Source of the DNA: Escherichia coli
Lineage (GTDB): Bacteria > Pseudomonadota > Gammaproteobacteria > Enterobacterales > Enterobacteriaceae
Strand: one strand, 5' to 3'
Assembly: GCF_003334405.1 (NCBI RefSeq)
Contig: NZ_QOWM01000009.1
Length of the DNA: 64,000 nt
Of this stretch, positions 1-6,000 are shown one piece after another (positions within the stretch are counted from its first letter, which is position 1; every line of letters starts with the position of its first letter). The position numbers are program-made.

Positions 1-3000
1 GATTCTGGTTTATACCGTCAATAAACCCCAGCGCGCAGCAGAGTTGCTGCGCTGGGGTGTGGATTGCATCTGTACCGATGCGATTGACGTGATTGGTCCG
101 AACTTTACGGCCCAATAGTTTTCAACGGAATGTCAGGCTGCGGCGTGCTGGGCTGATTCAGCATGTCGCCGTTTCTCCTCTCCGGCAGCATATGCTGCTG
201 ATTCAACGAACTATCCGGATTACGGTTGCTGTTTAACATCCCGCCGTTGGTGTTGGGCAGCATTTGCTGCCGGGCGGGATTTCGCTCCCCCGGCTGTGAC
301 TGCAACACCCGCTGAGAATTATTGTTTATCTGGTTTTCTAAATGCTGCTGTTGCAACTGAGTTTGCGTTTTCAGTTGCTGATTCAGCATCCCTTTTTGCT
401 GGATTTGCTGAGTCTGCATCTGGGTTTGCATCCGCTGCTGGCTGGGTATCTGATACCCCGGCTGGTTAGGGTTGTTCAGAGTATTAATGGGCTGTGCAAA
501 GCCGACAAACGGCAGGAGTGCCGTAAGAATCAGAAGTCGTTTCATCGCGTATCCTCCTCTGAAGATATCCTTTAAGTTTACTCGCTTCCCGACAAAACGA
601 TGATTAATTCAGAGTTATATACCAGGCTTAGCTGGGGTTGCCCCTTAATCTCTGGAGAATAACGATGATAAAACCGACGTTTTTACGCCGGGTGGCCATT
701 GCTGCTCTGCTCTCAGGAAGTTGTTTTAGCGCCGCCGCCGCGCCTCCTGCGCCGCCCGTCTCGTATGGTGTGGAGGAAGATGTCTTCCACCCGGTACGCG
801 CGAAACAGGGAATGGTAGCGTCTGTGGACGCCACTGCCACTCAGGTGGGGGTGGATATTCTCAAGGAGGGCGGGAATGCCGTTGATGCCGCCGTGGCGGT
901 GGGCTACGCGCTGGCGGTAACGCATCCGCAGGCAGGGAATCTGGGCGGTGGTGGTTTTATGTTAATCCGCTCGAAAAATGGCAATACCACGGCTATCGAT
1001 TTCCGCGAAATGGCACCCGCCAAAGCGACCCGCGATATGTTCCTCGATGATCAGGGCAACCCGGACAGCAAAAAATCACTCACTTCGCATCTGGCTTCCG
1101 GCACACCGGGTACGGTAGCAGGTTTCTCGCTGGCGCTGGATAAATACGGCACCATGCCGCTGAACAAAGTCGTGCAGCCCGCGTTTAAACTGGCACGCGA
1201 TGGTTTTATCGTTAACGACGCGCTGGCTGACGATCTCAAAACCTACGGTAGCGAAGTGTTGCCGAATCACGAAAACAGTAAAGCTATCTTCTGGAAAGAG
1301 GGCGAGCCGCTGAAAAAGGGCGACACGCTGGTGCAGGCGAACCTGGCAAAGAGCCTGGAGATGATTGCTGAAAACGGCCCGGACGAATTCTATAAAGGCA
1401 CGATTGCGGAACAGATCGCCCAGGAGATGCAGAAAAACGGTGGCTTGATCACTAAAGAAGATTTAGCAGCCTATAAAGCGGTCGAACGCACTCCGATAAG
1501 CGGCGATTATCGCGGGTATCAGGTTTACTCCATGCCACCGCCATCCTCCGGCGGGATCCATATCGTACAAATCCTCAATATTCTGGAAAACTTCGATATG
1601 AAGAAATACGGCTTTGGCAGCGCCGATGCGATGCAAATCATGGCAGAAGCGGAGAAATACGCCTACGCCGACCGCTCGGAATATCTTGGCGACCCGGATT
1701 TTGTCAAAGTACCGTGGCAGGCGCTGACCAATAAAGCCTATGCCAAATCTATTGCCGATCAAATTGATATCAATAAAGCGAAGCCATCCAGCGAAATTCG
1801 CCCCGGCAAGCTTGCGCCTTATGAGAGTAATCAAACTACCCATTACTCAGTGGTGGATAAAGATGGTAACGCGGTGGCGGTGACCTATACGCTGAACACC
1901 ACCTTCGGTACGGGCATTGTCGCGGGCGAGAGCGGTATTCTGCTTAATAACCAGATGGATGATTTCTCCGCCAAACCGGGCGTACCGAACGTTTACGGGC
2001 TGGTGGGCGGTGATGCCAACGCCGTCGGGCCGAACAAACGCCCGCTGTCGTCGATGTCGCCGACCATTGTGGTGAAAGACGGTAAAACCTGGCTGGTTAC
2101 CGGTAGCCCAGGCGGTAGCCGGATCATCACTACAGTGCTGCAAATGGTGGTGAATAGCATCGATTATGGCTTGAACGTCGCCGAAGCGACCAATGCGCCG
2201 CGTTTCCACCATCAGTGGTTGCCGGACGAGCTGCGTGTCGAAAAAGGGTTTAGCCCGGATACGCTCAAGCTGCTGGAAGCAAAAGGTCAGAAAGTGGCGC
2301 TGAAAGAGGCGATGGGCAGTACACAAAGCATTATGGTTGGGCCGGACGGTGAGTTGTACGGCGCATCCGACCCGCGCTCGGTGGATGATTTAACGGCGGG
2401 GTACTAAGGTTAGCGGCCCTCTTCGTGGGAAGAGGGCTATTTTGTCAGGGCAAGCCGAAGGTAGCCTTTTTTATTTCGTAATCCTGTAGATATTCTTCCA
2501 GCGGTTTTGCCGTTCCCAGAGAATGAATTTCACCACTGTCTTTATCAATAATAAAAGGTGCGTTACCAGCTAAGCGCGCAGCCTCATCTCCAGTTTCGAG
2601 AAATTCTCGTGCTTCGAAACAGAAATACCAGCCCTGGCTAAAGCGTCCATGTAGAGTAATGACGACCGGGAGATCTGCATCATCAAGGTAATGGTTCGCT
2701 TTCGCGAATGCGTCGTGATAAGTAATCATAATTATAATAAATATTATTGTTGAGTGTTATATTATTATTCCTGTGTGATACATTGAGCAAAGACGCGTTC
2801 ATCTTCGTCAAAGATATTATTAAATGCTGGTTTTGAAAAAAGTTCATCGGATAAGATATAGTCACGAAATAAGTATCTGCTAATATTTTATGATTTCTTT
2901 TTCAGAACGTCGAACGGGATTTTCTTATTTAAGATATCAGAATCTTATGATTCGGGTAAAATTCTAAATAAATCAACATGTCATTAAAATCATCATAGCC

Positions 3001-6000
3001 ATTAGCTATTTCGGCTAAAATAGAGACTACATGTCTTCGGTCCATCTCACTTAAGGAGTGTAGTTCCGTTGTAAGTTTTTCCATAGCTTGCACTGCTAAA
3101 TTTCGAACAAGGAATTTTCTGCTGGTAATCTCTAAAAAGATGGCATGGTTTACAATGATTTTTGTTTCCTTTTGATTATTATGAACAACTGTCCATGATT
3201 TCGTTTAAGAATGAAGAGAAATCACTAAACGAACTGAATATATTTTCTGTGCCAATATTATCTCTAATTTCAAAAAAGTTACTTTTAATGTCATAAGTAA
3301 ATATTGAAATGCTATAATCCCCGATCACTAACCGTTCTTGTAGATCAGGGTTTATGAAATCATCATTATTTCTATAAAATTCATTTACGGCAAAAAGGTT
3401 TTTAACTGAAGGTTCTGGAATCGAGAGGCTAAATAATCGTAATCCATTAACTTCGAATCCATCCATTGCTCTTAAAAAAGTAAGATAATCAGGTTGATTC
3501 TTAAAAAGAATACTAACTTCATTACATAACTTCTCCAGGCAATTAGTTGAATTAGAATTAAATTCTATTTGGATTATACTTTCAATAAATGATTCCTTGA
3601 GCGGTGCTTCAAATGGATAGTCTAAATCATTCATCATTTTTATTAATTTATTTATTTGGGTTTTAGTCATCATTTTGTGTGGTCCATAATATTTTTCATG
3701 GGAGGATAAATTGAGCCAGATGGAATGGCCCAGGGAGTGATTTTGCTTTCACCTACTAATATTCCCTTAGCTATTCGTGATTGCATGTTAGTAAAAACTT
3801 TATGATATGGTTCGTTTTCGATTAATACTAAATTTTCGAAATCATTAGTACCACCATCATCTAGAGATAGTTTATGGTGAACATTATAATTTAGAGGAAC
3901 ATTGCCCTTTCTCATTCTTAAAAGGTCTTCGGCGTTGAATCTTCCAGATGCTTCGGAGGTTTTTGCAAGTTTGATAAGAAAATTTTTTCTTACAGTTTTA
4001 TTAAACTCCTTTCGTAAGTTAGCTAAGTCTTTTGAAGGTCTCTTAATGTATATTATTTCTATTATGTCTATACCATCAAGAAGTTTTTGTTGACCTCTAA
4101 GTTTGCCTAAGTAACTATTTATTTCTGTATATGTATCAACATTAGAACGCTTTGTTAAAAGAATAGATGCTGTTGCTATCGCTATGCCCGCTGTTTTTTC
4201 ATTTAGTATTTGATCATAGCCTTTTATTGCATCTCCACCCAGTTTTTCCGCAGTATCTCTGAATCCTTCAATGTTCCCATTGTATACGCCACCAGCAGCA
4301 AGTAGCCTGCCAATAGCTTTGCTGTTTAACGTTTTGAAACGATTATTTGTTTGGTTTTTTGAATTTGGTAAAAACAAACGGTTATAATTTTCAGGGAGTG
4401 CCAAATAGCTGAACTCGGTATTTGCGATAAGATGTTGACAGAGGATAAATTCATAACTAATAGTTATTGTTTCTGTATCCAGTTGGTTTTCAATGATCTG
4501 GTGATGAATAGCCGATAAAAAAGCGCCTCTTAGTTGTATATAATAATACTTTTCCAATCTACCAAATCTATTTATTCGATAGAAGTCAAATCCCATAAAT
4601 AATTGTTCATTATTGTTAATGGAATTAATAAATAATGGAGTGCTTTTATCAATTAATTTACAAAATGTTATACCATGGAACTGTGAACCAAGCCCCGTAT
4701 TATTAATATTATTTAAGAGTGAGAATGTAAATATTTCATCCTCATGCCCGCTCTGCCAACGATTACCTGTAGACTCAGAAGTCCCACAACCTGCGGAGAT
4801 GCTTCCTTGTTGTTCTCCCGTTACTGTCAGGTAAACAATATTACTCATCCCTGAAAAGTCCTTTTATGGCATGCTATTTTATCAATGGCAATATTATGCT
4901 TGTTAATTGTTATTTATTTACTCCAGGAAATTGTAGGCGTATATATTAAAAAATAAAATATTACACTTTAGGAAGTAATTATGAGTTAAATCTCAATATA
5001 TGTATTGGGCAAATAAATACCTTAAAGGAAGGTATGTCGATTTTGAATGACACCCTTTTTCCATCTCAGAAAAAGGGCACTATCTTACTTCACCCGCGCC
5101 ATATAATATGCATCGACATATTCACCATTACGCAATGCGTACTTCTTACCAGTCCCTTCAATTTCAAAGCCGTATTTTTTATAGACCTTAATTGCCGGGG
5201 CGTTATCGACAAACACGGTTAGTTCAATGCGATCTACCCGCAACCAGTTGTCGCACATTTCAATCATCTCTCGCATCAGGGCGCTGGCGACGCCGCGGTT
5301 CTTCCAACGAGAGTCGACACAGATACCAAAATCGGCAACATGACTGCGGCGTGGGCGCTGTTGCACGTCAATGGTGAGATGGCCCACGACGTCTCCATCA
5401 ATACAGGCGACGAGTTGCTTGATGCCGGGACGATCGGCGAGTCGCTCCTGCCACATATGATCGGAAGGATGAGGCACCTGTAGTGTGTTGCAATACACCT
5501 CCGGCTGGGCGTGAATCTGCCTGATGGCCTCGTAATCCCGTGTTTCTGCGTGGCGTATTACTATCTCACTCATTCCTTTGTCCTCTTTGGGGTAAATGTC
5601 CCTTTCAACATCATTGACTTTCAAATGCGAGTCAAATGCATTTTTTTGCAAAAAGTGTTGGACAAGTGCGAATGAGAATGATTATTATTGTCTCGCGATC
5701 AGGAAGACCCTCGCGGAGAACCTGAAAGCACGACATTGCTCACATTGCTTCCAGTATTACTTAGCCAGCCGGGTGCTGGCTTTTTTTTTGATCTTTCGTT
5801 CTCAATTTATCCACGGGAGTGCTTGTGTTCGTTATGCGCACTCCAGTAGGAACCACGTCCGCTTTGCGCTAAGGTGTAAATAACCACCTTAAAAAGGACG
5901 AAATCATGGTCATCAACTGCGCCTTTATTGGCTTCGGCAAAAGCACCACCCGTTACCATCTGCCGTATGTACTTAACCGCAAGGATAGCTGGCATGTCGC

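Follow-up and report, generated by a model that had tools for sequence, protein, structure and literature searches.

The 64,000-nucleotide stretch of Escherichia coli DNA analysed here (contig NZ_QOWM01000009.1, hereafter the window) contains four genes between ggt and yhhY, namely yrhB, yrhD, yrhA and yhhZ, all of which are on the minus strand (Table 1). An original prediction made from the sequence alone described 2730-5084 as an AT-rich, horizontally acquired accessory island between the core genes yrhB and yhhY, containing the only genes of the window that are not housekeeping. Our results indicate, with a probability of about 0.8, that ~2439-5084 is a chromosomal interbacterial-competition islet coated by H-NS, consisting of a type VI secretion system (T6SS) effector-immunity pair, YhhZ and YrhA, and an orphan Imm35 gene, yrhB.

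The computed G+C content of 2730-5084 (2355 nt) was 31.8%, while equal-sized windows placed along the 64 kb without overlap had a mean of 52.6% (sd 1.7, minimum 47.9), which places the region at z = -12. In a 400-nt profile the GC fraction was 0.52-0.58 in ggt, 0.29-0.35 from ~2600 to ~5200 and 0.47-0.54 beyond, with sharp edges near 2600-2750 and 5050-5200. The GC fraction at third codon positions (GC3) was 0.26 for yhhZ, 0.24 for yrhA and 0.33 for yrhD, against 0.63, 0.57, 0.58, 0.60 and 0.58 for the flanking genes ggt, yhhY, yhhX, yhhW and gntR, respectively. The three intergenic spacers inside the islet had 28-31% GC, and yrhB was in between (GC 0.45, GC3 0.39). Nowhere else in the window did GC stay below 42% over more than 750 nt; of the three remaining low-GC dips, all short, one was between malT and malP, one between feoA and yhgF and one near 54 kb. 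Both the sliding-window profile and the third codon positions (0.24-0.33 versus 0.57-0.63) put the GC of 2730-5084 far below that of the flanking genes, so that the AT-richness first judged by eye was borne out, and the locus has the atypical composition of a genomic island (z = -12; GC3 0.24-0.39).

Table 1. Features of the ggt-yhhY locus (positions in the window)
Feature	Position	Strand	Basis or remark
ggt	665-2407	+	left flanking gene
ggt intrinsic terminator hairpin	2415-2438	+	terminator scan; last sequence common to all four haplotypes
Whole variable (accessory) segment, ggt to yhhY	2439-5084		junction alignments, counts of the four states
yrhB, 94 aa, predicted orphan Imm35-family immunity gene, CdiI type	2445-2729	-	Pfam Imm35
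AT-rich spacer between yrhB and yrhD, 28% GC	2730-2928		6.5% divergence from CFT073
yrhD, 51-54 aa, doubtful/decaying open reading frame, no family detected	2929-3093	-	profile searches, CFT073 comparison
yrhA (= ETI1), 164 aa, predicted SUKH-fold immunity protein	3179-3673	-	NCBIfam YrhA family, AF2/Foldseek
yhhZ (= Hcp-ET1), 392 aa, predicted Hcp fused to HNH DNase toxin	3670-4848	-	TIGR03344, Pfam, fold match
Hcp (TssD) domain, YhhZ residues 1-147	4408-4848	-	TIGR03344, PDB Hcp matches
Predicted colicin/pyocin-type DNase fold, YhhZ residues ~245-385	3694-4116	-	AF2, Foldseek, invariant residues
H-N-H core H324-H325...N339...H349 of YhhZ	~3802-3877	-	homolog alignment
AT-rich region upstream of yhhZ, 30% GC, presumed promoter region	4849-5084	-	abuts the yhhY stop codon (5085)
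yhhY, acetyltransferase gene	5085-5573	-	right flanking gene

YhhZ and YrhA as a predicted effector-immunity pair

Residues 1-147 of YhhZ matched the Hcp model TIGR03344 with 118 bits (cut-off 58.9, E = 3.8e-34) and Pfam T6SS_HCP (E = 2.5e-11), and PDB sequence matches of this part were Hcp3 3he1 (2.3e-11), 6a2v and 5mxn. The Hcp assignment was made from these sequence profiles, while AlphaFold2 (AF2) was used for the C-terminal half only, since in the full-length model the Hcp half had a predicted local distance difference test score (pLDDT) of ~30 caused by an alignment that mixed Hcp and DUF8093 carriers (see below). Residues ~245-385 were modelled with a pLDDT of 80-95 and contained the elements of a beta-beta-alpha scaffold (strands 321-325 and 340-344, helix 345-360). 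Foldseek matched this part to pyocin S2 (4qko), pyocin AP41 (4uhp), ColE7 and ColE9 with a probability of ~1.0 and a root-mean-square deviation of 2.4-2.9 Å over 77-87 columns. In an alignment of 26 homologs (40-95% identity), H324, H325, D330, D331, G333, N335, N339, L340, E346, H349 and K350 were invariant. The model and the alignment point to an H-N-H (beta-beta-alpha-metal) DNase fold with the His-Me finger motif at the C-terminus of YhhZ, and the fold match agrees with the published assignment of YhhZ to His-Me finger group 32 (PMC5714182). YhhZ was earlier described as an 'evolved Hcp' with a 'degenerate HNH' (PMC2907695); judged from the invariant residues, the catalytic motif appears intact, which would refine that description.

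The ATG of yrhA overlaps the TGA of yhhZ (ATGA at 3673-3670), implying translational coupling of yrhA to yhhZ. YrhA matched the NCBIfam YrhA family (E = 1.7e-35), while on its own it had no Pfam match, remaining under every SUKH threshold, and no PDB sequence match. The family is small, with 61 clusters at 50% identity in an exhaustive representative search, and Pfam matches among 34 aligned relatives were to SMI1_KNR4 (7), SUKH_6 (5) and SUKH_5 (3). The AF2 model of YrhA (pLDDT 89.4) had as its top fold matches YobK, BF1740, a Listeria protein, yeast Knr4 and Syd (2prv, 3d5p, 2icg, 6qbq and 3ffv), the best of them being Bacillus subtilis YobK, which confers immunity to YobL. Because of this fold match and of the relatives that match SUKH profiles, YrhA is predicted to be a SUKH-fold immunity protein, and its gene adjoins that of a putative polymorphic toxin, as in other SUKH systems.

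YhhZ was 100% identical to the K-12 protein and identical at 391/392 residues to the copy of E. coli 55989, for which YrhA was identical at 162/164 residues; the same four-gene islet is present in E. coli 55989 and IAI1. According to published accounts, Hcp-ET1 of STEC004, O104:H4 C227-11 and 55989 is an orphan Hcp-HNH protein with ETI1 encoded downstream, which kills competitors in a T6SS2-dependent manner and has DNase activity that ETI1 neutralises (PMC6730261, PMC6099711, bioRxiv 10.1101/2024.03.05.583533; after Ma et al. 2017, Virulence). With an N-terminal Hcp/TssD domain, a fused C-terminal toxin domain and an immunity gene directly downstream, YhhZ has the predicted architecture of an Hcp-ET protein. 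YhhZ and YrhA appear to be the published, already known Hcp-ET1/ETI1 pair, with which they share the proteins, the locus, the Hcp + HNH architecture, the downstream immunity gene and the orphan site away from any T6SS cluster, and from which they show no structural difference. Composition, domains and folds, the conserved motif, toxin-YrhA co-inheritance, presence/absence and synteny thus come from this analysis, while T6SS2-dependent killing, DNase activity, neutralisation by ETI1 and H-NS binding come from the literature.

Residues 152-392 of YhhZ are conserved, and homologs of residues 148-392 (592 matches) carried one of two N-terminal domains with no relation to each other. In E. coli and Citrobacter this domain was Hcp, while proteins of Enterobacter, Leclercia, Pantoea, Franconibacter, Serratia and Erwinia had PF26362/DUF8093. 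In an Enterobacter roggenkampii protein, similarity to YhhZ begins at residue 152 (62% identity over 152-382) and there is none before. In every context examined a YrhA homolog followed directly after the toxin domain, YrhA being co-inherited with this domain across genera. The Citrobacter koseri pair (73% and 64% identical) occupies the same yhhY-ggt slot, while the Enterobacter pair (62% and 61% identical) is located between thiM and a sucrose operon, and the cassette is AT-rich within GC-rich genomes (38% versus 55.5% and 36% versus 58%). The distribution of its homologs suggests that the YhhZ toxin domain behaves as a polymorphic toxin, being a C-terminal domain on unrelated carriers that is accompanied by a YrhA homolog.

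In the Enterobacter-type modules (loci L006-L008; toxin 8001-9146, immunity 9163-9663), DUF8093 of ~150 aa replaces Hcp, with the swap at YhhZ residue ~150. No mention of DUF8093 was found in the literature; it could be an uncharacterised delivery, secretion or trafficking domain. In one of these loci, an Enterobacter metagenome contig (L006), genes for a tyrosine-integrase-like protein and an AAA ATPase (4817-7452) lie directly upstream of the DUF8093-HNH module; thiM/thiD take this position in L007 and L008, which points to a second insertion at the edge of the L006 module. C. koseri has neither yrhD nor yrhB behind its YrhA homolog; the stretch up to ggt instead contains another small open reading frame (ORF) of ~81 aa (MVNNTELNILKLL...; L009, ~9700-9950).

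The pairs of ColE7/ColE9 and pyocins S2/AP41 resemble YhhZ/YrhA in the H-N-H DNase fold and in the immunity gene directly downstream. They differ in being delivered by receptor-binding and translocation domains, instead of the Hcp/T6SS injection expected for YhhZ, and in their ~85-aa four-helix Im immunity fold, compared with the 164-aa alpha+beta SUKH fold predicted for YrhA. The sequence identity of YhhZ to these DNases is 16-28%, and unlike them YhhZ has a conserved extra region of ~90 residues (175-~245) before the nuclease fold. Usp/Hcp-ET3-4 of uropathogenic E. coli also combines an Hcp carrier with a C-terminal nuclease (pyocin-S3/colicin DNase), followed by one or more Imu immunity genes (PMC2907695, PMC6730261), but belongs to another toxin family, is located at another chromosomal site and has triplicated immunity genes.

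Defence islands often contain HNH nucleases and AT-rich, H-NS-bound islets, and an anti-phage abortive-infection nuclease system would share these features. No PADLOC family matched any of the four islet proteins or the alternative cargo of O157:H7 strains (see below), no other defence genes are nearby, the N-terminal domain of YhhZ is a true Hcp and its neighbour has a predicted SUKH immunity fold instead of a sensor fold. An anti-phage function was dropped as extremely improbable.

YrhB matched Pfam Imm35 (PF15567) over residues 5-83 (E = 4.6e-23). It is 70% identical to a Pectobacterium Imm35 protein of CdiI type, whose gene starts at the stop codon of CdiA (start/stop overlap), and the C-terminus of this CdiA contains PT-VENN, DUF6862 and Gln_amidase (PF15644). 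In the window yrhB has no adjoining toxin gene, its neighbours being ggt and yrhD, and since it lacks the toxin found beside its Pectobacterium homolog, yrhB is regarded as an orphan immunity gene; in Enterobacter the Imm35 gene is also standalone. By analogy with Pectobacterium, YrhB would protect against CdiA glutamine-deamidase toxins.

YrhD had no match in Pfam, NCBIfam, PDB or PADLOC, nor by tblastn against related loci, and no relatives were detected outside E. coli. The CFT073 copy of yrhD, without a start codon and interrupted by a stop, is a pseudogene (dN/dS, omega, ~2), and neither the C. koseri nor the Enterobacter modules contain yrhD; YrhD is probably not functional. The frame of yrhD (2929-3178) is open from just past the yrhA stop, and rare database variants in which 1 nt or an internal piece is deleted (P0122, P0168 and P0358; 246, 198 and 105 aa) have YrhA and YrhD as one fused protein.

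The variable slot between ggt and yhhY

Presence and absence were determined in 5426 complete E. coli genomes. The full islet (yhhZ-yrhA DNA) was present in 3813 (70%) with 97.4-100% identity, always on the chromosome and never on plasmids, and essentially in single copy, the median being one place per genome; K-12, B and CFT073 are among the carriers. With yrhB found in 4087 genomes, ~274 (~5%) have yrhB alone and ~25% lack it. A 1.8-kb cargo encoding a DUF4225 protein was present in 343 genomes (6%), including O157:H7 and O55:H7 strains, all at an identity of at least 99%, and an empty junction with ~60 bp from ggt to yhhY in 986 (18%). These four states cover 5416 of the genomes. The segment is therefore accessory, as had been claimed, being carried by ~70% of the genomes with three other states in the same slot; comparison across genomes showed that it is not universal and that alternative cargo exists.

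In junction alignments the haplotypes share ggt and its terminator hairpin, part right after it and rejoin exactly at the yhhY stop (5085), so that the true limits of the variable segment are the ggt terminator (~2439) on the left and the yhhY stop codon (5084) on the right. Since the haplotypes part before yrhB, this gene is inside the variable segment and is not core, and its intermediate GC together with its variable presence means that the accessory segment does not end where the composition changes at 2730. Of the span first proposed, the right edge at the yhhY stop was retained, while the left edge at 2730 had to be moved to the ggt terminator; likewise, the description of yrhB as a core gene failed, as this Imm35 immunity gene is missing from about a quarter (~25%) of the genomes. 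The yrhB-only haplotype has a yrhB allele of 92% identity and an unrelated spacer, which argues against a simple deletion of the full islet, and in general the four slot haplotypes (Hcp-ET1 islet, diverged yrhB-only, DUF4225 effector and empty) are unrelated and not simple deletion derivatives of each other. Variable presence at a fixed site, another mark of a genomic island, was thus observed. Scans of the islet detected no tRNA and no integrase or transposase ORF, flanking repeats were only short and at chance level, and no mobile-element boundaries were obtained from repeat, tRNA, promoter and terminator scans.

The cargo of the O157:H7/O55:H7 lineage (locus L003, 945-2760) has 31% GC and encodes a 303-aa DUF4225 protein with no recognisable carrier domain; this cargo is missing from the window. 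The DUF4225 domain has been validated as a T6SS toxin that acts in the periplasm, and DUF4225/Imm4225 of Vibrio parahaemolyticus belongs to the same antibacterial toxin family (PMC9765294). An unannotated 138-aa ORF with two hydrophobic helices (L003, 1277-1693, plus strand) is convergent with the DUF4225 gene and overlaps its 3' end, and is a candidate immunity gene of this cargo. A published island, 'Gist34', labels yhhZ-yrhAB as methionine-to-cysteine conversion (PMC3309015); this was set aside as an apparent name confusion with B. subtilis yrhA/yrhB.

Compared with CFT073 (phylogroup B2), yhhZ, yrhA and yrhB had a synonymous divergence (dS) of 0.057-0.067 and an omega of 0.27-0.36 (yrhB 0.27, yhhZ 0.36), while dS of the flanks was 0.205 for ggt (computed over the last 1500 nt owing to an indel near the 5' end), 0.257 for yhhY and 0.136 for yhhX. 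Between this strain, which is phylogroup A-like, and CFT073 the flanking core genes are thus 2-4.5 times more diverged synonymously than the islet genes. This gap seems too large to be explained by the AT-rich composition alone; recombination between locus haplotypes may have caused the higher divergence of the flanks, and the low dS of the islet suggests allele replacement through the flanks by homologous recombination. The annotation of the CFT073 assembly lists yhhY as a pseudogene interrupted by a stop (L020, 4406-4894).

Compared with C. koseri, the islet genes were saturated at synonymous sites (proportion of differences, pS, ~0.77), and their nonsynonymous divergence (dN), well below dS, was 0.17-0.24, versus 0.01-0.11 in the flanks. 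Because the diverged C. koseri pair occupies the same slot and its synonymous sites are saturated, the acquisition is considered old, and the yhhZ-yrhA pair appears to be old and fast-evolving in protein, yet still under purifying selection. Of the claim of horizontal acquisition, the accessory and atypical nature of the DNA stood, while a recent date did not, given the lack of mobility machinery and the old C. koseri copy. More tentatively, the ggt-yhhY slot might be a long-lived exchange site for conflict cargo in Enterobacteriaceae that is kept polymorphic by balancing selection.

The islet could also be a silenced, non-functional remnant that is kept by drift and is cost-free through H-NS. 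The degeneration of yrhD, IS1 insertions in yrhA and yhhZ of several strains, the empty site in 18% of genomes and the tolerated laboratory deletions (bioRxiv 10.1101/2024.10.07.617030) agree with such decay. It is nevertheless quite improbable, as clusters of 392-aa YhhZ sequences hold ~15,000 members, far above the truncated ones, dN/dS is below 1 for yhhZ, yrhA and yrhB, C. koseri still has the pair at this site although the synonymous sites have reached saturation, and killing has been reported, in the accounts cited for Hcp-ET1, for an essentially identical protein.

The window is collinear with E. coli strain 10 (99.97% identity), for which the RefSeq annotation has the same genes. RyhB was detected at 5724-5788 (plus strand), between yhhY and yhhX (Rfam RF00057, 83 bits versus a gathering threshold of 55, E = 2e-15); this is where the iron-sparing small RNA is known to lie. 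A match to Rfam snoR69Y at 3283-3379 (31 bits versus gathering 45) was rejected as a chance match in AT-rich DNA, and promoter-like sites in the islet were not enriched (15 versus 12 ± 3 in shuffles). Promoters of yhhZ are mentioned in PMC12428005. Since rtcR-rtcBA (RNA repair, 26845-30878) and rpnA (recombination-promoting nuclease, 42666-43544) are not housekeeping genes either, the statement that the islet has the only such genes of the window was overstated.

Silencing, delivery and the proposed function

Two 'promoter islands' of K-12, located within yhhZ and yrhA, are predicted to be foreign and were H-NS-bound in the ChIP-chip (chromatin immunoprecipitation with microarrays) data of Kahramanoglou and Oshima (PMC3661553, its Table 1), and H-NS sites overlap RpoD (RNA polymerase) sites at insB6/yrhD (PMC3946193). 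From this K-12 literature we infer that the toxin operon would be silenced by H-NS in this strain as well.

The original prediction placed any conflict system of the window here, and the segment does encode a predicted T6SS Hcp-HNH DNase effector, its immunity protein and an orphan immunity gene. In the proposed model, the Hcp domain of YhhZ would be built into the inner tube of a T6SS, and firing would inject YhhZ into a neighbouring bacterium, where its C-terminal ~240 residues, ending in the DNase, would degrade the DNA. YrhA, translated from the ATGA junction, would bind and neutralise the nuclease in the producer and its kin. YrhB would provide protection against CdiA deamidases without a matching toxin in this cell, and H-NS, by coating the 32%-GC DNA, would keep the toxin operon largely silent.

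Several points weigh against this model. The sequence match of the YhhZ C-terminus to Pfam HNH is weak (E = 0.013), the Foldseek E-values of the DNase part were only ~2e-3 over the 77-87 columns, and the functional claims on Hcp-ET1/ETI1 come via reviews and one preprint. No T6SS genes were found in the 64-kb window, whose sequence is K-12-like, and K-12 and B strains are without a T6SS (PMC6730261), so the toxin may have no delivery machine in this host. In K-12 an insertion sequence, IS1 (IS1E, window ~3281-3292), cuts YrhA after residue 130 of 164 while yhhZ is 100% intact (see also PMC12428005), and in MG1655 clones yhhZ-yrhA was deleted spontaneously with growth unaffected (bioRxiv 10.1101/2024.10.07.617030). 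The IS1 insertion and the tolerated deletion imply that the module is silent or dispensable there. The window differs from K-12 in having no IS1 in yrhA.

A broken immunity gene beside an intact toxin gene implies that the toxin is silent or harmless in the K-12 background, and this configuration largely refutes a self-stabilising addiction (toxin-antitoxin-like) module maintained by post-segregational killing. The toxin and immunity genes are tightly coupled with overlapping stop and start codons, as such a module would require, but K-12 is viable with the truncated immunity gene and the intact toxin, whole-module deletions occur spontaneously, 30% of genomes are without the module and it is never on plasmids. 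We consider addiction very improbable.

Where the host has no T6SS, the islet is silent and may matter as immunity only. Extended to selection, this would make the islet defensive in this host and in others that lack a T6SS, with YrhA acting against Hcp-ET1 fired by E. coli neighbours, YrhB against deamidase toxins of contact-dependent growth inhibition (CDI), and the toxin as a silent passenger. Polymorphic-toxin systems are known to include orphan immunity genes, and the ~274 genomes that keep yrhB alone as a distinct allele and the standalone Imm35 gene of Enterobacter fit a defensive role, as does the retention of the islet by K-12 and B strains that have no T6SS (PMC6730261). A passenger toxin is, on the other hand, hard to reconcile with its intact ORF, its invariant catalytic motif and its omega of 0.36; in K-12 it is the immunity gene that is broken and not the toxin gene, and yrhA without yhhZ was found in no genome among those sampled. 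Immunity as the only selected function is therefore considered unlikely, and the effector-immunity islet remains the preferred explanation.

In conclusion, AT-richness judged by eye located the only interbacterial-weapon locus of the 64-kb window. The toxin-immunity pair, the DNase fold and H-NS binding are already in the literature, while the present analysis corrects the annotation in that yrhB appears to be an accessory orphan immunity gene, the islet appears ancient and without mobility machinery, and the slot of the O157:H7 lineage holds another putative T6SS effector. The ggt-yhhY locus thus illustrates on a small scale how effector and immunity genes turn over in nature while their chromosomal site stays the same.

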